Positions 1,387-10,902 of a stretch of 64,000 bases of DNA are shown piece after piece. The DNA is from a virus (lineage: Duplodnaviria; Caudoviricetes): IMG/VR virus record IMGVR_UViG_3300025715_000009, positions 224,001 to 288,000 of that record; one strand, given 5' to 3'. The notes beneath the pieces are model-generated. The model did not search any database, was not told where the DNA came from, and saw only the letters and a program-made list of their open reading frames with translations. The position numbers and the translations under genes were made by a program. The stretch's first letter is position 1. Each line of letters opens with the position of its first letter.

Positions 1387-1980
1387 TTAGATTTGTGCGT
1401 ATAATTTATTAAATTCATCTTCTAATTGAGCATTGTTAAACACTTCATTTAATGCTTGTGGACTAACTGTAGCATAATCCATACCAGAGAGTATGGCATC
1501 AATTACTTCATGTTTTCCTCTAAATGAAGCACCTACTAATTTTATATTTGATTTGCTTATTTGTTTTAATTTATATGCTTGTTTAAACAAATCAGGGTTC
1601 TCATTTTTATGTTTATAAACCATGGTGTAGTCAACACCAAATTCTATTGCTTGATTTATTTGAACAATGTCATATATTGTAGTTGTTGCTACTTGATAAT
1701 TTTTAGATTTTAATTCTTTAATAAAATTATAATGTTTTGGATGAAGCATCACTTTAAAAATTATATTTTTATTTTTAAATTTTTCAACTTCATGCATATT
1801 AGACACTTGAATAAAAATTTTTTTATTTAATCTATTTGGTATAGAAGCAACCATATCTAAAAATTGTTCAGTTGTTATTCCTTCTTTTTCTAATAGATAA
1901 GGATTAGATGTTACACCTTCTATAACTGGAAGCCATTCAAGAATATCTTCTTTTTTAACACTGTCTAAAAAATATGTCAT
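1387..1980 (-). CDS. Transaldolase/fructose-6-phosphate aldolase (FSA/TalC-type) family protein
   Basis: YFLDS, GVTSNP, Schiff-base Lys in IIFKV, GASFR, DYATV motifs. Confidence 0.8.
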   Translation of the reverse strand: MTYFLDSVKKEDILEWLPVIEGVTSNPYLLEKEGITTEQFLDMVASIPNRLNKKIFIQVSNMHEVEKFKNKNIIFKVMLHPKHYNFIKELKSKNYQVATTTIYDIVQINQAIEFGVDYTMVYKHKNENPDLFKQAYKLKQISKSNIKLVGASFRGKHEVIDAILSGMDYATVSPQALNEVFNNAQLEDEFNKLYAQI

Positions 1981-2711
1981 AAATCCTCCAAGTCTTGTGG
2001 TATATCAACTCCATGGCTTTTATGAACCATTTCTATTAATTTAATAGACAATCCATGTTCTAAGAAGGATATTTGTTCAAGCCCTTCTTTTTTGGCCAAA
2101 TCACTAACAAAGTAATTAATATTATTAAAGTCCATTCTTTTAAATAAACATGGGTGGAAGATAAAAATTCCAATATGCTGCTTGTATTCTTCAATTGGCA
2201 ATAAACCATTCTTTGAGTATGGAATAGGAGAACGCGAAAAATATAAAACATTATCATCATGACTTACTATCTTACAACTTCTATTTAATTCTATTCTGTT
2301 TTTATCATAAAACTTAGTATAGCAAGTTGTAATAAAATCTTCAGGACCATATTGTTTTTCAAGGTGTTTAAACCACATTTTATTTATTTCTTGATGGTCT
2401 AACATTGGTTCATCTGATGGAAATGATACATACCAATCGTAGTTAGGATATTTTTTCCAAACATGATATGACCTTTCACTTCCACATCCTACTTGTTCCC
2501 ACATATAAAAATATTCTATATTTCTATTTTTACAATGTGTTGCTACCTCTTGACTATCTGTTGCAACAATTAAATGGTCGGCTATTTGTGCTGATAAAAC
2601 ATTATTAATTACTTTATCAATTATTTTTTCACCATCTATTTCAGCAAATAACTTGTTTGGAAAACGCTCGCTCTTTAATCTTGCAGGTATAATTGCTAGC
2701 ATGTTATTCAT
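1977..2711 (-). CDS. kdsB: 3-deoxy-manno-octulosonate cytidylyltransferase (CMP-Kdo synthetase)-like
   Basis: IIPARLKSERFPNK, VATDS, SDEPM, LYFSRSPIPY, HIGIF, EGLEQ, GVDIPQDL motifs. Confidence 0.88.
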   Translation of the reverse strand: MNNMLAIIPARLKSERFPNKLFAEIDGEKIIDKVINNVLSAQIADHLIVATDSQEVATHCKNRNIEYFYMWEQVGCGSERSYHVWKKYPNYDWYVSFPSDEPMLDHQEINKMWFKHLEKQYGPEDFITTCYTKFYDKNRIELNRSCKIVSHDDNVLYFSRSPIPYSKNGLLPIEEYKQHIGIFIFHPCLFKRMDFNNINYFVSDLAKKEGLEQISFLEHGLSIKLIEMVHKSHGVDIPQDLEDL

Positions 2712-3450
2712 ATATTTGTTGTATTACCTCTTTTAGTTGATTTGATGGTATCATAACTTGACCATCACATAAAGCATTTTCACAATCTGGATGTGTTTCT
2801 AAAAATATACCATCTGCTCCAGCAGCAATATATGCTCTACCTAATGTTATGGCATTATCTACTTTATCTCCAGGATAGTTTTTATTAGGGTGAGTAATAT
2901 CACATAAAACAGGAAAAGAACATCTTTTCATAATAGGGACATGACGTGGGTCCATGAATACTTGGTTATATCCTAACTGTGTTCCTCTATCTGTTATTAT
3001 AATTTTATCAGCACCATATTTCCAGGCATTATTGGCTATATTAATCATATCTTCAGGGCCTACAAATTGAGGTTTTTTAATATGCATGCCTAAATTATGT
3101 TTAGAGCAGAAAGCGGCGGCCTCTTTTAATAAAGAGTGTTGTTTGGCTAAATAGGCAGGAATTTGAATTAAATCAATTTGTGAAAAATCATATTTTATAA
3201 AGTCTTCTGGTGTATGAACATCAGTGCATATTTTTATTTTATATTCGTATTTTATATCTAATAGGAAATCAATTGCTTGTTGTGGGTTTATGCCAGAAAA
3301 TCCAGTAGTTGTTGTTCTATTATCCTTTCTCCAAGAAGACTTAAAATAAAAATCAACATTTAAATCAGAAATTGATTTGAGTAAATCATTTATTGTTTTT
3401 TGTAATATGTCTTTGCTCTCTATTACGCAAGGTCCTGCTATTAAAATCAT
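2704..3450 (-). CDS. kdsA: Kdo-8-phosphate synthase-like
   Basis: IAGPCVIES, FKSSWRKDNRT, TDVH, QIPAYL, KKPQF, DITH, GIFLETHP, ALCDG motifs. Confidence 0.9.
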   Translation of the reverse strand: MILIAGPCVIESKDILQKTINDLLKSISDLNVDFYFKSSWRKDNRTTTTGFSGINPQQAIDFLLDIKYEYKIKICTDVHTPEDFIKYDFSQIDLIQIPAYLAKQHSLLKEAAAFCSKHNLGMHIKKPQFVGPEDMINIANNAWKYGADKIIITDRGTQLGYNQVFMDPRHVPIMKRCSFPVLCDITHPNKNYPGDKVDNAITLGRAYIAAGADGIFLETHPDCENALCDGQVMIPSNQLKEVIQQIYE

Positions 3451-3460
3451 ATTATTTATA

Positions 3461-3487
3461 AAAATGGTCAGACTTAGAGTCTGACCA
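3461..3487 (-). terminator. Intrinsic terminator between the radical SAM cluster and kdsA
   Basis: Perfect 10-bp stem TGGTCAGACT/AGTCTGACCA, followed by a T-run on the minus strand. Confidence 0.7.
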
Positions 3488-3504: not shown

Positions 3505-3777
3505 TTATTTTATAAGTTGTAGTTTTTTCTTATCAAAATCCACATTCCAAGAATTTTCTGATGTAGTTATAATATTATTTTCTTTTTGCATTTTTTCAAA
3601 CCATGCATCATAATTAATTTGTGCATTGGTCAATTCTTGTATTAATTTTTCAAACACAAATTTGTTGTCTTGTGGTGTAAAATCTTTAATTAAAGATTTT
3701 ATTGCTAAAAGACCTGTATTTAGCATTCTTATTTCTTGTGCTTGTTGTTCAGATAAATCGATTTCTTTTATTATCAT
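3505..3777 (-). CDS. CXXX-repeat peptide modification system accessory protein-like
   Basis: Helical 90-aa protein ending W..M.......W.VDF; directly downstream of CXXX maturase; paralog of 4953-5240. Confidence 0.65.
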   Translation of the reverse strand: MIIKEIDLSEQQAQEIRMLNTGLLAIKSLIKDFTPQDNKFVFEKLIQELTNAQINYDAWFEKMQKENNIITTSENSWNVDFDKKKLQLIK

Positions 3778-3805: not shown

Positions 3806-4960
3806 TTATAAACTATTATCTAGTTCATTATATTTTTTCCAATAAATTTCTGCCCATTTTGATTGAATTTTATGAATTTCACAAATATTAGTTTGACGAT
3901 AAAACTTTCCACATTCAGCATAAGCTGATCCTATACACCATGCACAATTAGACTCAACGGGGCATGATATGCATTCTGGTTTACTTATATTGGCCCTTGT
4001 TTGATCTCTAATAAGTTTAAATCTATCTTTATGATAAAATCCATTAAAAACATCACCAACATAAAAATCTAATTCTTTTGAAGACATAGTATGTGGCATA
4101 AATCTAAAACATGGATATATTTTACCATTTATACTAAGTGCTGGCATTGCACCAGAACCACACCATCCTTTATCTGGTTCTTGCATAGGTTTACCTACGC
4201 CAAATTCTTTACTTATAATTGACCAATATAAATCATTTTTGTGTTGTAAAACAAAATCAACACATTTTTCCATTTGTTCATCTAAAATACTTAAATCTTT
4301 TTCTTCTAAGTATAATGGTTCAAAAATAAAGTTTTGATTTATATTGCGCAATCCTAAGTCCAAATGCATAAATTTTAAAGAATCATATAAATATGGAATG
4401 CTTTCTTTATTAAGAGTAGATTTAGTTGTTGCATTTTCCAATCCAACATATTGTATATACCAATCCCAATATTTTAAAATATCATCCATGCTATTACTTC
4501 TATTTAGATTATGTATTGTTGGGCTTCCATCTACAGATATTCCAAGAGAAATATTTCCTTTAAATTCTTCTAAAAAATCTCTTACATTCGGGTCACCAAA
4601 TAAAGTTCCATTTGTAGAAATAGAACTTCTCCATCGTGTAGCCCATCTATGATTTTTTATTGTAGATGCAAAAATAAAATATCTTAATATGTCTCTTGTT
4701 AAAATTGGGCGCATTAATGCATCACCACCAATGAAATCTAAAATCAAACCTTGTTTCATTATCCATGCTTCTGATGTTCCCATAACTCCAATTGGATCTG
4801 GATCATCTAAAATAAGATCAATAAATTTTTTTGCATATTCTAAAGGTAAATCACCTGGTTTTTTATTTAATTCATAACAATATTTACATCGTAAATTACA
4901 ATCTTCTGTAACATTAAAAGTAATATTAAATCCAGCATATTGTGGTTGTGGTTCAATCAT
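3806..4960 (-). CDS. Radical SAM/SPASM peptide maturase, CXXX-repeat target family-like
   Basis: ITFNVTEDCNLRCKYC, FIGGD, STNG, SVDG; SPASM Cys CGSG..IYPCFRF..CISC..CAWC..C; start placed at ATG 4960 after AGAGG SD. Confidence 0.9.
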   Translation of the reverse strand: MIEPQPQYAGFNITFNVTEDCNLRCKYCYELNKKPGDLPLEYAKKFIDLILDDPDPIGVMGTSEAWIMKQGLILDFIGGDALMRPILTRDILRYFIFASTIKNHRWATRWRSSISTNGTLFGDPNVRDFLEEFKGNISLGISVDGSPTIHNLNRSNSMDDILKYWDWYIQYVGLENATTKSTLNKESIPYLYDSLKFMHLDLGLRNINQNFIFEPLYLEEKDLSILDEQMEKCVDFVLQHKNDLYWSIISKEFGVGKPMQEPDKGWCGSGAMPALSINGKIYPCFRFMPHTMSSKELDFYVGDVFNGFYHKDRFKLIRDQTRANISKPECISCPVESNCAWCIGSAYAECGKFYRQTNICEIHKIQSKWAEIYWKKYNELDNSL

Positions 4961-5240
4961 TTTTACCTCTATGCACAATAAGAGCTGAGTTTTCAAAATC
5001 TAATGAGATGTTTCTTTCTGATATATTGTATTTTTCTATAATCATATTCCACCACTTTTGTTCAAGCCATAAACTTTCACCTCTTGCAGTTATAACTGAA
5101 TTTACGTATTTATTCATTGTTTCTTGATCAATATTAAGTGGAATAGTTTTGATCATCTGTCTAGTTGTTTCTAATTTGTTTAATATAATGTTCATAGAAT
5201 CAATTTCTTCTTTTTCTATTTGTATTGAAGTGATCATCAT
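4953..5240 (-). CDS. CXXX-repeat modification accessory protein-like (paralog)
   Basis: WWNMIIEKYNI...ISLDFEN C-terminus resembles 3505-3777. Confidence 0.6.
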   Translation of the reverse strand: MMITSIQIEKEEIDSMNIILNKLETTRQMIKTIPLNIDQETMNKYVNSVITARGESLWLEQKWWNMIIEKYNISERNISLDFENSALIVHRGKND

Positions 5241-6210: not shown

Positions 6211-6771
6211 TTAGTTTAATAATATATATGCAGAATGATTACCATTTTTTCTTTTATGTAAAATAAATCTTTTAGAATTATTTTCTTTTAATCTATTGAC
6301 CAAATTATCATATAATTTTATTTTATTCTGTTTATTAAAATAATAATATATATGTTCAAGATTCATATCAAAATTTTCAGGACAATCACACCAATAGAAT
6401 ATACTTTCAACTTTATTTTCTAATGTCATTTTAGACATAACAATATAACTTGTCTGTTTTAAATCTTGATCCAATGGATATTCAGCTTCAAATTCATATT
6501 TTTCAATAGAAGAAAATGTTATATAATAACTTTCAAGAACATTGTTTATAAAAGCAACATAGCATCCATTTAAAAATACGTCAAGATTGAAAACAAAATC
6601 TTTAATAGATTGTGGAATTAAATTAAATTTAGATGAAAATAAAAAATATTCAGCATCTATTTTGCCAGTATTAATTTCTGTTTTTATAATATGATCTCTA
6701 GGTGGAGATAAAATATCTTCGCGCCAAACTAATTCGTTTTCATCTAAATTATAAACTAAATCATATGACAT
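6211..6771 (-). CDS. Hypothetical protein (paralog of 6772-7290)
   Basis: Shared YYYFNK.N.I.LY.NLV..L motif and C-terminal A(Y/W)IL.N. Confidence 0.7.
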   Translation of the reverse strand: MSYDLVYNLDENELVWREDILSPPRDHIIKTEINTGKIDAEYFLFSSKFNLIPQSIKDFVFNLDVFLNGCYVAFINNVLESYYITFSSIEKYEFEAEYPLDQDLKQTSYIVMSKMTLENKVESIFYWCDCPENFDMNLEHIYYYFNKQNKIKLYDNLVNRLKENNSKRFILHKRKNGNHSAYILLN

Positions 6772-7290
6772 TTAATTAATTAAAATCCATGCAAAATATT
6801 CATCATTTGTTTTAGATAATAAATAAAAAATCATGTCTTTTGAATTTAGCAAATCAACTAAATTATTATATATTTGAATATTATTTTTTTTATTAAAATA
6901 ATCATATAACTCTGATGATTTATAATAACGATATAGTAATTCAGTTTTTTCTAAATCTGTTTTTGCAATTATTAAATCACTTAATTTAAATAATTCTGGA
7001 TCAATTTCAACATTAAAATTATAATTTTCTTTTGGATCAAAAACTAAATAATATTCTATATGAGAATTACCATCCATCATAATTATTGAAGAATTTTCAT
7101 GAAAATTGAATTTTTCTATGATAGAAAGATGATCTGATGTTATTAGAGATTTTTTATTATTATATTGATATCCATTATAAATTAATTCTTTTGAATTAGA
7201 ATCAATTATTTCAAAATTAGTATTATCATTTTTAAATAAAATTTCATATATAAAATTTTTTGTACCAAGATTATAACATAAATATTTCAT
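6772..7290 (-). CDS. Hypothetical protein (paralog of 6211-6771)
   Basis: Same motifs; SD AGGAGG upstream. Confidence 0.7.
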   Translation of the reverse strand: MKYLCYNLGTKNFIYEILFKNDNTNFEIIDSNSKELIYNGYQYNNKKSLITSDHLSIIEKFNFHENSSIIMMDGNSHIEYYLVFDPKENYNFNVEIDPELFKLSDLIIAKTDLEKTELLYRYYKSSELYDYFNKKNNIQIYNNLVDLLNSKDMIFYLLSKTNDEYFAWILIN

Positions 7291-7299
7291 ATTTTCCTC

Positions 7300-8229
7300 C
7301 TAAGCTCTTCCTGAAGCATCAGCACCTTGTCTAGCAGAATTAGCACATCCACTACTACATGATGAAAGACATGTAGCATTACAGCCACTAAGACATAAAT
7401 TATTACATACGGTGTTACAACTGGTTAAACAAGTATTGGAACATCCAATACCACATGTTCCAGTACAATTGATAGATGCACATGTTGATGTGCAACTGTT
7501 TGTACATGTTCCAACTGTACATGTATTTGCGCATGTTCCAACTGTGCAAACATCACCACATGTAGCAGAACAAGATAATCCACATGGTGAACATGACCAA
7601 CCAGATCCAGAAACGTATCCCTTACAACCATTAGAACAGCCACCACCACAACGCCCAGTACAATCAACTTTACAACCAGTTTGACAATTTACACCACAAT
7701 AGTTTTTACAACCATTTTGACAATTTCCAGTACATAAAGTACCACATACATTATCACATGCAGTAGAACAAGTTCCACTACACCCATTGCATCCATTTTT
7801 ACATGTAGCAGTACAATCAAAGGCACATGAGACACCACATGTTGATAAACAAACAGATGCACATGTTATTGAACAGCCAACACATTTTGCTCCATTAGCT
7901 GCATCATCAACAACTTGACGAACTTCTTCAAGGTGTTTATTTAGAATAAATGTTGGACTTGGAAATGTTGTATTTGTAAAGTTAAAATTTATTCCGGTGC
8001 TTCCGATAGCATTACTATAATCAACTAATCCATTGACACCATTTCTTAAATCTATTATTACTTGTGGACTTGCTTTTGATCCCTCGGTTGGCAATGTAGT
8101 CCACGAAACAGTTGATAAATCTCTTTTAGGTCTTTCAACGTTTATATGGTTCATTGTTTCTGTTAAATCAATATCATTAATTGGTTTTTCAAAAAGAGGT
8201 TTGTTTGAATAGGTTTTTTCATTAGACAT
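7300..8229 (-). CDS. Cys-rich CXXX-repeat protein, probable radical SAM target, with fibre-like N-terminal domain
   Basis: About 115-aa Cys-free N-terminus, then 44 Cys mostly every fourth residue; SD AGGAG. Confidence 0.85.
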   Translation of the reverse strand: MSNEKTYSNKPLFEKPINDIDLTETMNHINVERPKRDLSTVSWTTLPTEGSKASPQVIIDLRNGVNGLVDYSNAIGSTGINFNFTNTTFPSPTFILNKHLEEVRQVVDDAANGAKCVGCSITCASVCLSTCGVSCAFDCTATCKNGCNGCSGTCSTACDNVCGTLCTGNCQNGCKNYCGVNCQTGCKVDCTGRCGGGCSNGCKGYVSGSGWSCSPCGLSCSATCGDVCTVGTCANTCTVGTCTNSCTSTCASINCTGTCGIGCSNTCLTSCNTVCNNLCLSGCNATCLSSCSSGCANSARQGADASGRA

Positions 8230-8240
8230 ATTAATTCTCC

Positions 8241-8293
8241 TAATTGAATCTAGTTATTATTATCTTAAGTATTTTAATAACTAGATTCAATTA
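8241..8293. promoter_or_regulatory. 19-bp perfect inverted repeat with AAGATAA promoter-like motif in its loop
   Basis: TAATTGAATCTAGTTATTA-ttatcttaagtattt-TAATAACTAGATTCAATTA, immediately 5' of the SD of the CXXX gene. Confidence 0.6.
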
Positions 8294-8319: not shown

Positions 8320-10605
8320 CTATGCCATTAATATCATTACCCATACTCTTGATGGGGTGGAATCTTCTTTTTTCTCCATAACTTTTGCGAATATTTTTCC
8401 TTGACCATCTTCACCGGCTCGCTTAACAGTAGCAAAACCTATTTTGCTTGATGTAATTAATAAATCACCAATTTTACAAGGCTCATCAATCCAAACTTTT
8501 ACTCTTCCAGATATTCCCACTGGGAGTTTATTCTCTTGATTTTCTGCACCAAGAGCATAACCAAATGTATCAGAATAAACACCAACCACCGCTGCATCTC
8601 CTCTATTAGAACAAGGAGCTACACCATATTCTGTTTGAACCAAAACCATACCAGGTTCTGCATCTAATGCTTTTGGCATAAATTCTGCCAAATCGTTCCA
8701 CACTGCATTATATACTCTTGTGGCATATAAATAGCCATCTAAATTTAATCTATCTGTTGCTGTAGGATCGGTTGTACCAGAATAAAATTCACCAGTTGTT
8801 TTAGAAGTAAATTTTCTCATTAGTTCTGCTGTACTACCAACTTTTCCAGCTTCCCATTTATCTGTTGTTTCATTCCACTTAAGCTGAGCATCATTATCAC
8901 CTTCAGTAGTTGTTTTTGCTCTTCTTACAGAGACCGTGGCATCACCATCTGCTCCTGGGTTTGCAAATTTAATTAAAACATCAGAATCAGATACTTGACT
9001 GTTTTGTGAATCAATATATACTGTTGTCCCACTTACAGTTAAATTACCAGGGATAGTAACATTACCATCACCAGAAATAGTTAATAAAGAAGAAGTAGAT
9101 GACCCATTATTTGCTGCAAATATAATTTGGTCCCCTGCATCTCTACCAATTTCATGTCTAACAATTGTATTTGATCCGCTTGTTTCACAAACAATTTGAG
9201 CAAAATCATCTACTTCTGCTAATGGTTTAAATAAAACTTCATTGGTATATATTCTGGCAAGTTCTTTGGTTGAAGATCCTATTTCCATGGAATCATTATT
9301 AAGAGGTATAATATTACCAGACATAATCATATTATTTTCAACAGAAATTTTTCCTGTTCCAGATGTGCTTAACACAATGTCTTGATTTGTAGTTGCTGTT
9401 ATAGAAGTATTTGTACTTGGAAGACTTGCTTGAACAATTTCACCATATGTTACCCCATCATTAGAAACTTTAAGTTTTCCACTGTCTACTTTTATAATAT
9501 GACTTGTTCCTAAATAAATTGTAGATTCATCAAAATGTCCAGTTTGTGCATAAACATTACCAAATTTGTGTGTTGCATCTCCTAAATCTACTTGCCCATT
9601 ATTTGCTGGAATTAAATCTTTTCCATTTTGAATAGCAGATACATTTTGTAAGTAATTAAAATCAACAACAGCATTTCCTGAAACATAATCTTCTACCCAT
9701 ATTTTTGATGCATATTGAGAAAGAGATGCTGATTTATAGACAAGTAATGTAACTCTATCGGTTGCCACCATACCAGTAGTATAACTGACATCTAATTCGA
9801 TTGTACTTGTATCAATAATTGTATAATCATCTCCAAGTGCTAATAAAAGACCATTATAATAAACAAACAAATCAGACCCATCTAATGAAAACTGTTCATC
9901 TGAAATAAATCTATATTTTGCTGGTGCAACAAGAGGGAAGCCAGATACATCACCTGCAAGTCTTAATGTTGTTACACCATCCCAAGAACCATCTACTGGA
10001 ATAATTTGATAATATGGATCTACTTTTGTAGCTATTCTTAATTGATCATTTGTTGAATCATAAAATAATCTACCAGCTAAAGAAGCAGCCCAAGTTATTC
10101 CTGTTCCTGAAACTGGAGTATCAAATGCTGTAAATCCTGTTAAATGATCATGTAGTCGATGTCTTGAACAATTTGGATTTATTATAACATTTTTATCAAA
10201 ACCAGTATTAGCATTTGTAATTCTTATATCACCACTTACCAAACTAATTGATAATGATGCTGGAAGAGCAGCATCCATAAGTGAAATAACTGTGTTATAA
10301 GATATTGGTTCACTTTGTCCTGTTGTATTAATAGAGTACTCTACCCCATTAACATCAAAATAATAAATAGTGGTTGGTTTTAATCCAGAATTGCCTGATC
10401 CATCTCCTATAGAAAGACCAAATTCTTGATAACCAGCAGCAAATGTATCAAAATCTTCTACTACTGTAACTGTACCTTTTGTAATCCATCCAGTTGGATC
10501 AGCAGCTGCATTTGCTATTTTTGATTGTTTAATTGCAGCATTAACTGCAATTTGTAAGTCACTTAAACTTTGACTTTGTATTTGTTCAGCTCGTAATTTG
10601 GGCAT
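8320..10605 (-). CDS. Tail fibre/spike protein with C-terminal intramolecular-chaperone (peptidase G2-like) domain
   Basis: RVYNAVWNDLAEF...PGMVL...VVGVYSD...PVGISGRVKV...GDLL; beta-rich fibre segments shared with the 2090-aa protein. Confidence 0.75.
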   Translation of the reverse strand: MPKLRAEQIQSQSLSDLQIAVNAAIKQSKIANAAADPTGWITKGTVTVVEDFDTFAAGYQEFGLSIGDGSGNSGLKPTTIYYFDVNGVEYSINTTGQSEPISYNTVISLMDAALPASLSISLVSGDIRITNANTGFDKNVIINPNCSRHRLHDHLTGFTAFDTPVSGTGITWAASLAGRLFYDSTNDQLRIATKVDPYYQIIPVDGSWDGVTTLRLAGDVSGFPLVAPAKYRFISDEQFSLDGSDLFVYYNGLLLALGDDYTIIDTSTIELDVSYTTGMVATDRVTLLVYKSASLSQYASKIWVEDYVSGNAVVDFNYLQNVSAIQNGKDLIPANNGQVDLGDATHKFGNVYAQTGHFDESTIYLGTSHIIKVDSGKLKVSNDGVTYGEIVQASLPSTNTSITATTNQDIVLSTSGTGKISVENNMIMSGNIIPLNNDSMEIGSSTKELARIYTNEVLFKPLAEVDDFAQIVCETSGSNTIVRHEIGRDAGDQIIFAANNGSSTSSLLTISGDGNVTIPGNLTVSGTTVYIDSQNSQVSDSDVLIKFANPGADGDATVSVRRAKTTTEGDNDAQLKWNETTDKWEAGKVGSTAELMRKFTSKTTGEFYSGTTDPTATDRLNLDGYLYATRVYNAVWNDLAEFMPKALDAEPGMVLVQTEYGVAPCSNRGDAAVVGVYSDTFGYALGAENQENKLPVGISGRVKVWIDEPCKIGDLLITSSKIGFATVKRAGEDGQGKIFAKVMEKKEDSTPSRVWVMILMA

Positions 10606-10707: not shown

Positions 10708-10860
10708 ATGGAAAAATATAAAACAATAAGAATGCGAGAAGCATTTTGGAAAGAGATTAGTCATTTATCTGTTGAGTTAGATAAAACAATGGGTGAGACT
10801 ATTAAATATCTTTATGATTATTATAAGACTAACGGTGGCAAAGGCATAATGAAAAAATAA
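10708..10860 (+). CDS. Small ribbon-helix-helix-like DNA-binding protein (50 aa)
   Basis: Not in track; AAGGA SD, then MEKYKTIRMREAFWKEISHLSVELDKTMGETIKYLYDYYKTNGGKGIMKK (strand-helix-helix pattern). Confidence 0.6.
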   Translation: MEKYKTIRMREAFWKEISHLSVELDKTMGETIKYLYDYYKTNGGKGIMKK

Positions 10861-10883
10861 ATGGGGCTCGTTACGAGCCCCAT
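10861..10883. terminator. Terminator hairpin between convergent genes
   Basis: ATGGGGCTCG-tta-CGAGCCCCAT, T-rich tail on minus strand. Confidence 0.8.
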
Positions 10884-10902
10884 CTAATTAAGTTAATTTA
10901 AC

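Follow-up and report, generated by a model that had tools for sequence, protein, structure and literature searches.

A cysteine-ladder protein encoded between a fibre-like gene and a radical SAM cassette in a 388-kb phage record: a candidate stapled rod of the tail-fibre apparatus

What role could be served by a protein that carries a cysteine at almost every fourth position over 180 residues, and that is encoded directly behind a fibre-like gene of a phage? The question is raised by a locus in the IMG/VR virus record IMGVR_UViG_3300025715_000009 (Duplodnaviria; Caudoviricetes). The stretch analysed, hereafter the window, covers bases 224001-288000 of this 388-kb record (64,000 nucleotides, G+C ~30%), the completeness of which is estimated at 98%. 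The gene of interest encodes a protein of 309 amino acids (aa), referred to here as the Cys-ladder or CXXX protein, and is the only CXXX gene in the phage. We tentatively favour the explanation that this protein is the substrate of its own radical S-adenosylmethionine (SAM) cassette, a thioether-stapled rod that may fold back on itself, and a part or accessory of the tail-fibre apparatus. What is new is a rule, recurring among the relatives of the protein, for the position of a single spacer within the ladder.

A script count of the translated product places the 44 Cys within residues 116-295. Among the 43 Cys-to-Cys spacings 36 are exactly 4, giving tandem Cys-Xaa-Xaa-Xaa repeats, while three are of 3, three of 5 and one of 11. 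The sole long gap, C-KGYVSGSGWS-C, has 23 Cys before it and 21 after, and contains W211, the only Trp of the repeat region (W43 is the only other Trp in the protein). This split and its spacer had been described in a first-pass annotation of the locus, together with two repeated motifs in the N-terminal domain (N-domain). The residue count bears out the former, both motifs exist (VIIDLRNGVNGL at residues 57-68 and KHLEEVRQVVDDA at residues 98-110), and the sequence observation is thereby confirmed in every part. Besides Cys the ladder is composed mainly of Gly, Thr, Ser and Asn. It has no His at all, and its units have no conserved Asp, Glu or Thr acceptor position.

Proteins of this type are known as targets of the CXXX-repeat radical SAM system, which consists of a TIGR04115 maturase, a TIGR04116 associated protein and targets of the families TIGR04114, TIGR04117, TIGR04118 and PF27846 (tSAM_targ_Cxxx_rpt). 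The system was defined by comparative genomics, and we found no published biochemistry for it. The window protein itself gave no match to any of the four target models even at E ≤ 10. Four of nine relatives match TIGR04117 at E 0.013 or worse, most relatives carry a precomputed PF27846 assignment, which is also found on the nearest ESM Atlas clusters; a target-model match is probably hidden by the composition filters of HMMER. Matches of the ladder to mycobacteriophages in tblastn were taken as compositional, as were those to erbB-3, the only ones returned by a PDB sequence search with the family profile.

The enzymes encoded downstream point to the same system. The best family of the 396-aa maturase is TIGR04115 ("radical SAM peptide maturase, CXXX-repeat target family"), at 249 bits against a curated cut-off of 350 bits, so that by the NCBI threshold it is a homologue and not an equivalog; the corresponding enzyme of L005, a 45-kb phage contig with portal and major-head matches, scores 274 bits. 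The maturase carries a CX3CX2C motif at residues 33-40 and the full set of SPASM cysteines. Next in rank come the PapB ranthipeptide maturase (8e-34) and then the SCIFF, CcpM and QhpD maturases, yet the enzyme falls outside the PapB family (117 bits against a cut-off of 340) and the SCIFF family (65 bits against 425). Its only solved relative is CteB (5wgg, 1e-17, over residues 27-371). The match begins at CteB residue 101, and the N-terminal part of CteB is without counterpart in the maturase; the missing recognition domain of the CteB type is presumably replaced by a separate helper. Both candidates for such a helper, of 95 and 90 aa, match TIGR04116 over their full length at 34-35 bits, under the curated cut-off of 50 bits, and control genomes gave zero false matches. 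The nearest ESM Atlas clusters of the 95-aa helper are named "CXXX repeat peptide modification system protein". A search of the PDB with the helper profile returned nothing significant, and a fold like the recognition element (RRE) of ribosomally made peptides that are modified after translation (RiPPs) was not seen.

The second radical SAM enzyme has a CX3CX2C motif at residues 10-17 and a C-terminal CX2CX5CX3C, with a weak SPASM match and matches to several radical SAM families. Sactisynthase models fit both enzymes weakly (RumMC at 8e-6 for the maturase, SkfB at 0.008 for the second enzyme). The 172-aa protein has no family match, and its 186-aa paralogue has no counterpart among the compared open reading frames (ORFs) of L005 or of Salmonella phage SPN3US. 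Taken by homology, the 309-aa protein is the likely substrate of the radical SAM enzymes of the cassette. Thioether-type stabilisation would be the most plausible chemistry because a radical SAM/SPASM maturase related to PapB and CteB shares the transcription unit. The first-pass annotation had proposed thioethers or metal/Fe-S ions without choosing between them; the maturase homology favours the former, and a ladder without His disfavours the latter.

Searches with residues 1-118, covering the N-domain, against 1.84 billion representative proteins (HMMER) gave ten matches only. In eight of these a CXXX ladder comes after the same N-domain, and the complete ones mostly end in C-A-N-S-x-R-x-G-x-D. 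By sequence, the domain was found only ahead of CXXX ladders. An AlphaFold2 model of the N-domain built with 16 relatives (pLDDT 70, pTM 0.64) has helices at residues 19-32, 55-65 and 92-111, with the first of the two repeated motifs on the second helix and the other on the third. The two halves of the domain align in register with hhalign ([W/F]...I...H-h-x-x-h-R, P = 6e-4, probability 29%), which hints at an internal duplication. Foldseek searches of the model against BFVD and PDB gave nothing at E ≤ 0.001, and the best VIA-align score (Z 6.6) is within the noise for helical models; TssK and IglD were rejected as fold relatives at Z 4-5.7.

Other domains, amounting to 230-480 aa and including one of the ConA-like lectin type, stand before the N-domain or split it in four relatives (P0001, P0007, P0015 and P0026). 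Because the N-domain is internal in these proteins, it is not an N-terminal anchor. A Rosetta-stone comparison of the extra N-terminal domains of the longer relatives found no match in the window. The constant feature across relatives is that the N-domain stands directly ahead of the ladder. In its last helix H99, R104, Q105, V106, D108 and D109 are invariant or nearly so, as is a basic residue ahead of the first Cys. A helix of the same pattern and an Arg-Cys also stand ahead of the ladder in other CXXX subfamilies, with N-regions that are unrelated in other respects. We infer that this pre-core helix is a built-in, leader-like recognition element for the helper and the RRE-less maturase. The N-domain is thus more likely a docking or scaffold module for the maturase than a fibre-attachment domain, as it had first been annotated; that assignment is left with neither a fold match nor a terminal position.

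A profile search added further members along with many other CXXX proteins, most of them with PF27846, and scans of viral and metagenome contigs yielded ten further loci (a first scan of the viral contigs with the maturase alone had given one fragment only). The best-conserved parts of the ladder are its two ends, namely the first units on one side and the last four units plus the tail on the other, with length variation inside. The C-A-N-S-x-R-x-G-x-D tail co-occurs with the N-domain. These proteins form a small, distinct subfamily, known to date from contigs of phages and metagenomes, in which a helical N-domain closing with HLEEVRQV(V/I)DD is followed by two CXXX arms and a conserved tail. 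The gene order helper, CXXX protein, maturase recurs in L005, L015, L017 and L019, and CXXX protein, maturase in L012.

Upstream of the CXXX gene of L012, whose maturase is 59% identical to that of the window, lies a 472-aa ORF with a radical SAM motif (L012:2878-4296); the second radical SAM enzyme may therefore recur in the L012 lineage. A 422-aa open frame in L018 (L018:444-1733) combines the N-domain and a short ladder of 15 Cys with radical SAM middle and SPASM-like sequence, and could be either a natural fusion of target and maturase or an artefact of frameshift or assembly. Nine CXXX proteins of 470-540 aa (P0028-P0031, P0067, P0071, P0078, P0093 and P0101) start with a twin-arginine-like signal plus lipobox, MNDNELMNRRRFFKK...LTS|C, and presumably are lipoproteins of cells, with folding or modification in the cytoplasm preceding export by the twin-arginine (Tat) pathway.

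The position of the spacer was compared in 21 complete members, the core being taken to begin at the first Cys and to end at the Cys of the tail motif. The largest gap, of 8-14 from Cys to Cys, falls at 0.39-0.52 of the Cys count in 17 of the 21, with one such gap per member, over ladders that range two-fold in size (29-57 Cys). Examples are CNGWLVPTGC (at Cys 28 of 57), CWGGVTAWVC (13/29), CRGGYTTTNC (16/34), CWWWLGGNC (13/29), CDGGGYAHC (21/47), CSNTVYFWC (14/32), CRGGYTVTISC (15/32) and CGGNSWSAC (14/36). The spacers are rich in Gly, Trp and Tyr, and keep their Gly and aromatic character while neither sequence nor length is fixed. Of the Trp residues in non-redundant cores, 13 of 21 lie in the fifth decile of core length. 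A naive binomial estimate for the Trp/spacer pattern is ~1e-8, which is overstated since the sequences are related. The comparison supports the view that the central aromatic spacer is a recurrent feature of the family, not an accident of one gene. The first-pass annotation had made its proposal depend on homologues having such a spacer, and most of the family does. It had also asked whether the central loop is hypervariable; the sequence does vary, but the X positions of the arms vary equally and the Gly/aromatic bias is kept. The spacer as a border between the territories of two radical SAM enzymes was considered and rejected, because L005 has a spacer yet only one radical SAM enzyme was found there.

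The remaining line of evidence is the gene neighbourhood. From 10605 down to 3505 every gene lies on the minus strand, in the order 761-aa fibre-like protein, CXXX protein, 172-aa protein, 186-aa protein, 317-aa radical SAM enzyme, 95-aa helper, 396-aa maturase and 90-aa helper (Table 1). Two terminator-like hairpins of the minus strand enclose exactly the fibre gene and the cassette, which would make these one transcription unit bounded by predicted terminators. Past one hairpin are kdsA, kdsB and an aldolase gene, followed by gp25-like and gp6/J-like baseplate wedge genes; past the other are genes for proteins of 2090 and 1318 aa and a further baseplate wedge gene. The 2090-aa protein is fibre-like and has a module in common with the 761-aa fibre (1e-8). 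The last 160 aa of the 761-aa protein (window 8323-8805) form a conserved domain with a weak match, below cut-off, to the Peptidase_G2 intramolecular chaperone (0.025). Neither the fibre nor this C-terminal domain matched PDB sequences.

Fibre-like genes also stand beside CXXX genes elsewhere. On the 2.1-kb metagenome contig L015 the last 160 aa of the fibre have a homologue (positions 163-636, 39% identity over 161 aa, 6e-27) that directly precedes helper, CXXX protein and maturase. In L005 an 849-aa protein that weakly and partially matches a "tail protein and host specificity" family (5e-8) is followed by the same three genes. Homologues of the maturase occur in SPN3US and 70 other phage records. 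In SPN3US (L003, NC_027402.1) positions 4121-5150 hold three unannotated CXXX ORFs of 130, 134 and 68 aa, with gp167 ("virion structural protein 20") on one side and two radical SAM genes on the other. Over the 134-aa ORF the annotation has gp166 (L003 4597-4932), read in another frame. With ORFs that are unannotated or in the wrong frame, these products were out of reach of the virion proteomics published for SPN3US-like phages. From gene position, the best reading is that the cassette is tied to tail-fibre modules: it would share a unit with a fibre gene, it lies between baseplate genes, and L005, L015 and SPN3US are alike in this respect. A blastn search of the locus against phage records gave no match.

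Table 1. Features of the Cys-ladder locus and of its product, in window coordinates
Feature	Position	Strand	Basis
761-aa fibre-like protein, first gene of the unit	8320..10605	-	module in common with 2090-aa protein; L015 homologue
Cys-ladder (CXXX-repeat) protein gene, 309 aa, likely radical SAM substrate	7300..8229	-	ORF; 44 Cys, period 4; relatives
N-domain, residues 1-115	7885..8229	-	three predicted helices, internal [W/F]...H-h-x-x-h-R motif repeat
Pre-core helix, residues 92-111, FILNKHLEEVRQVVDDAANG	7897..7956	-	most conserved stretch; putative docking element for helper and maturase
Arm 1, residues 116-202, 23 Cys	7624..7884	-	Cys count
Central Cys-free spacer KGYVSGSGWS, residues 203-212	7594..7623	-	reverse-complement translation; recurs in family
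Arm 2, residues 213-295, 21 Cys	7345..7593	-	last four units conserved, C[YN]xxCxxSCxSGC
Tail, residues 296-309, ANSARQGADASGRA	7303..7344	-	with Cys295 forms conserved motif C-A-N-S-x-R-x-G-x-D
172-aa protein, function unknown, paralogue of 186-aa protein	6772..7290	-	BLASTP 9e-11
186-aa protein, function unknown, paralogue of 172-aa protein	6211..6771	-	BLASTP 9e-11
Second radical SAM enzyme, 317 aa	5249..6202	-	PF04055 9e-8; phrog_1802 2e-6
Helper, 95 aa, TIGR04116-like	4953..5240	-	2.2e-8, 34 bits, cut-off 50
Radical SAM/SPASM maturase, CXXX-repeat target family type, 396 aa	3806..4996	-	TIGR04115 9e-74
Second helper, 90 aa, TIGR04116-like	3505..3777	-	1.1e-8, 35 bits
Terminator-like hairpin upstream of fibre gene, upper bound of unit	10858..10886	-	13-pair stem and T-run
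Terminator-like hairpin after second helper, lower bound of unit	3465..3487	-	10-pair stem and T-run

Two further features of the neighbourhood were recorded. Between the fibre and CXXX genes (window 8235-8293) there is a perfect inverted repeat, ~18-19 bp long around a loop of 15 nt; it ends at an AGGAG ribosome-binding site and is not followed by a T-run on the coding strand. Window positions 1387-3450, between the CXXX cassette and the gp25-like baseplate gene, encode KDO-8-phosphate synthase, CMP-KDO synthetase and a fructose-6-phosphate-aldolase-like protein.

Sequence anatomy, its recurrence among relatives, gene neighbours and enzyme homologies are what the analysis shows, and from these the following plan is drawn for chemistry, fold and virion location. 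The last helix of the N-domain (HLEEVRQVVDD, then Ala-Lys/Arg-Cys) would dock the ~90-aa helper and the RRE-less maturase. Behind it come two CXXX arms of similar length, separated by one Gly/aromatic spacer just before the midpoint, then four conserved last units and the conserved tail. In the infected cell the maturase, perhaps together with the second radical SAM enzyme, would turn many of the 44 Cys into thioether cross-links, making a rigid, protease-resistant rod from a Gly/Ser/Thr/Asn-rich chain that would be unable to fold alone. The rod would most likely fold back at the spacer, with the conserved ends meeting at the N-domain and the variable middle as the far end. Made together with the 761-aa fibre, the product would probably be a part or accessory of the tail fibre and not a released peptide. 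The fuller proposal, a RiPP-type stapled hairpin needle on the tail-fibre apparatus whose Gly/aromatic tip and variable distal ladder contact the host, is a minority prospect in our estimation.

Granted that the protein is modified and tail-associated, we consider the odds of a fold-back to be roughly even; judged from the anatomy of the sequence, a hairpin is plausible. In its favour are the near-central placement of the spacer over the whole range of ladder sizes, the conserved ladder ends and the co-occurrence of the tail with the N-domain. Furthermore, P0026 and P0027 are ~99% identical over 480 aa, which include a ConA-like lectin domain placed within the N-domain, and again over their final ~70 aa, while divergence with indels is confined to the central ~130 aa of the ladder, spacer included. 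Such a pattern would be expected of a conserved base with a variable far end. Arm lengths correlate as well (r = 0.79, arm 2 exceeding arm 1 by 3.3 ± 2.6 Cys), but this is weak evidence because random gain and loss of single units would also keep the arms roughly balanced.

Together with this neutral expectation, several points weigh against the favoured explanation or its fold-back. At the X positions of the CXXX unit the arms are more alike in the same register than mirrored, and none of the three positions has a mirrored preference between arms. Structure predictions are uninformative on the fold: the whole-protein AlphaFold2 model built with nine relatives has a pLDDT of 38, an unusable ladder and helices drawn at low confidence, and the ESM Atlas model has a pLDDT of 0.49. 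In one pair of relatives, P0015 and L017, the differences lie in the last 45 aa only and not in the middle. The spacer rule has exceptions, P0007 having no gap above 5 and P0006, P0012 and P0013 a gap of 6 at 0.42-0.62. In CXXX proteins of ~880 aa the ladder is internal, followed by a domain of 180-300 aa, and its main gap falls at 0.29 of the Cys count. PapB, ScfB/CteB and QhpD, the nearest named relatives of the maturase, make local rings that need no hairpin. Maturase and helpers also score under their curated cut-offs, and literature searches turned up no paper on these proteins and neither virion proteomics nor biochemistry for any CXXX protein. Of the hairpin needle put forward in the first-pass annotation, the plan of two arms around a central spacer recurs in the family and stands, whereas the monomer model and the comparison of X positions between the arms lend the hairpin itself no support.

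Several of these points would be accommodated by a linear rod, in which the same modified, tail-associated protein is a one-way chain of local rings, the spacer serves as a hinge, kink or docking site, and the tail is the far end. The local rings of the nearest enzyme families, the arms without mirrored preference and the members without a spacer all fit such a chain, and the internal ladder of the ~880-aa proteins appears to act as a one-way stalk. However, a far end that is the best-conserved part of the ladder (tail plus last four units) would be unusual for a fibre tip, P0026 and P0027 diverge in the ladder middle, and the spacer stays near-central from 29 to 57 Cys. We regard the linear rod as rather unlikely overall.

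In another reading the protein is the precursor of a released RiPP-like product, with the N-domain as a long leader cut after the conserved Arg/Lys and a core that lysis would set free to act as toxin, signal or defence molecule. Long leaders comparable to the 115-aa N-domain are known from the Nif11 and nitrile-hydratase types, and the homology to a bioinformatically defined RiPP-type system (TIGR04115, TIGR04116), the conserved pre-core helix, the basic residue ahead of the first Cys in most members and the restriction of the N-domain to CXXX cores would all suit a leader. However, no peptidase, exporter or other transporter family was found in the genes of the unit, nor among relatives in the readable flanks of L005, L012 and L015. 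The supposed leader can carry 230-480 aa of extra domains, a ConA-like lectin domain among them (P0001, P0007, P0015, P0026), and the 180-aa core is far above known RiPP core sizes. The recurrent place in tail-fibre modules, here bracketed by terminators together with a fibre gene, also speaks for a particle component, and a released product is improbable. Still less probable is an array of free thiols that binds metal or Fe-S to stiffen a needle or to store Fe-S for the radical SAM enzymes, or that forms disulfides after lysis like twin-CX3C helical hairpins: 44 Cys at i, i+4 would line one face of a helix, such as AlphaFold2 draws at low confidence, and some cellular CXXX proteins have the twin-arginine signals typical of cofactor-bearing proteins, but a Gly/Ser/Thr/Asn-rich composition disfavours helices, the ladder offers no His, and metal binding needs neither the dedicated radical SAM/SPASM enzyme of peptide-maturase type nor the helper that are strictly linked to it.

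The favoured explanation, that of a stapled rod of the tail-fibre apparatus, would have consequences beyond this locus. Small secreted peptides are where the thioether chemistry of radical SAM enzymes is known to operate. Here an enzyme of that type goes with a 309-aa protein whose gene accompanies tail-fibre genes, in phages from 45 kb to the present 388-kb record. Should the protein prove to be cross-linked and part of the particle, it would represent a new class of post-translationally stapled structural protein, bring RiPP chemistry to a structural protein of a phage, offer a new principle for fibre parts that are very thin and very stable, and give a function to the TIGR04114-04118/PF27846 system, so far a matter of comparative genomics only. 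As the hairpin needle of the fuller proposal, it would furthermore be the first virion protein with thioether cross-links made by an enzyme, and a new way to build a fibre tip. The family rule (pre-core helix, two arms, spacer before the middle, tail) provides handles for experiments and annotation, and SPN3US-like phages, in which the CXXX genes lack annotation or were annotated in a wrong frame, are culturable.

Among known systems the CXXX-repeat radical SAM system is the closest. The locus shares with it a Cys at every fourth residue, an adjacent maturase with TIGR04115 as best family and two ~90-aa proteins that match TIGR04116. It differs in the scores of the maturase and helpers, which lie under the curated cut-offs, and in a target without a match to the target models. 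In place of a small peptide the target is a 309-aa protein with a 115-aa N-domain, predicted to be folded, two arms and a central spacer. The cassette adds one more radical SAM enzyme, one more helper and a pair of paralogous proteins without assigned function, and it lies within a phage tail module in what would be one unit with a fibre gene.

The closest characterised enzymes are PapB, which makes freyrasin with thioethers from Cys to the beta-carbon of Asp, and CteB/ScfB, the thioether-forming SCIFF maturase. As in these systems, the maturase has a SPASM domain with auxiliary clusters and its likely target has repeated Cys motifs. Unlike the PapB/CteB targets, with 6 potential donor Cys, the ladder has 44 and lacks a conserved acceptor position. 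Unlike a RiPP of the ranthipeptide/SCIFF type, it follows a 115-aa N-domain (up to ~480 aa stand before the ladder in relatives), in a unit that has no peptidase or exporter family.

The first-pass annotation had drawn an analogy to the needle of T4 gp37, an out-and-back trimeric tip with Fe ions held by His-x-His. The likeness extends to the proposed geometry only, a thin distal out-and-back rod adjoining fibre genes. The ladder has neither His nor HxH, its stabilisation would be covalent and enzymatic, and no PDB sequence or fold similarity was found between T4 gp37 or other fibre tips and the window protein.

SPN3US-like phages of Salmonella, Erwinia, Cronobacter and Proteus resemble the locus in having two radical SAM genes and CXXX ORFs after the fibre-like gp168 and gp167, with maturases 25-26% identical to that of the window over 87% of the length. 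Their targets differ, being three in number and small, with an N-region of ~50 aa and without the N-domain of the subfamily or a central aromatic spacer. In SPN3US gp165 no similarity to the 172/186-aa pair was seen, and no search for a TIGR04116-type helper was made there.

For the fold-back, the relevant comparison is with the sactipeptides subtilosin A and thurincin H, 30-40-residue secreted peptides in which nested links from Cys to alpha-carbons join the two halves of a hairpin. To our knowledge, sactipeptides are the only radical SAM products in which cross-links hold an out-and-back hairpin. Their donors lie on one arm and their acceptors on the other, whereas the ladder has Cys in both arms, 23 and 21; the sactipeptide hairpins are nonetheless a chemical precedent for a ladder that folds back.

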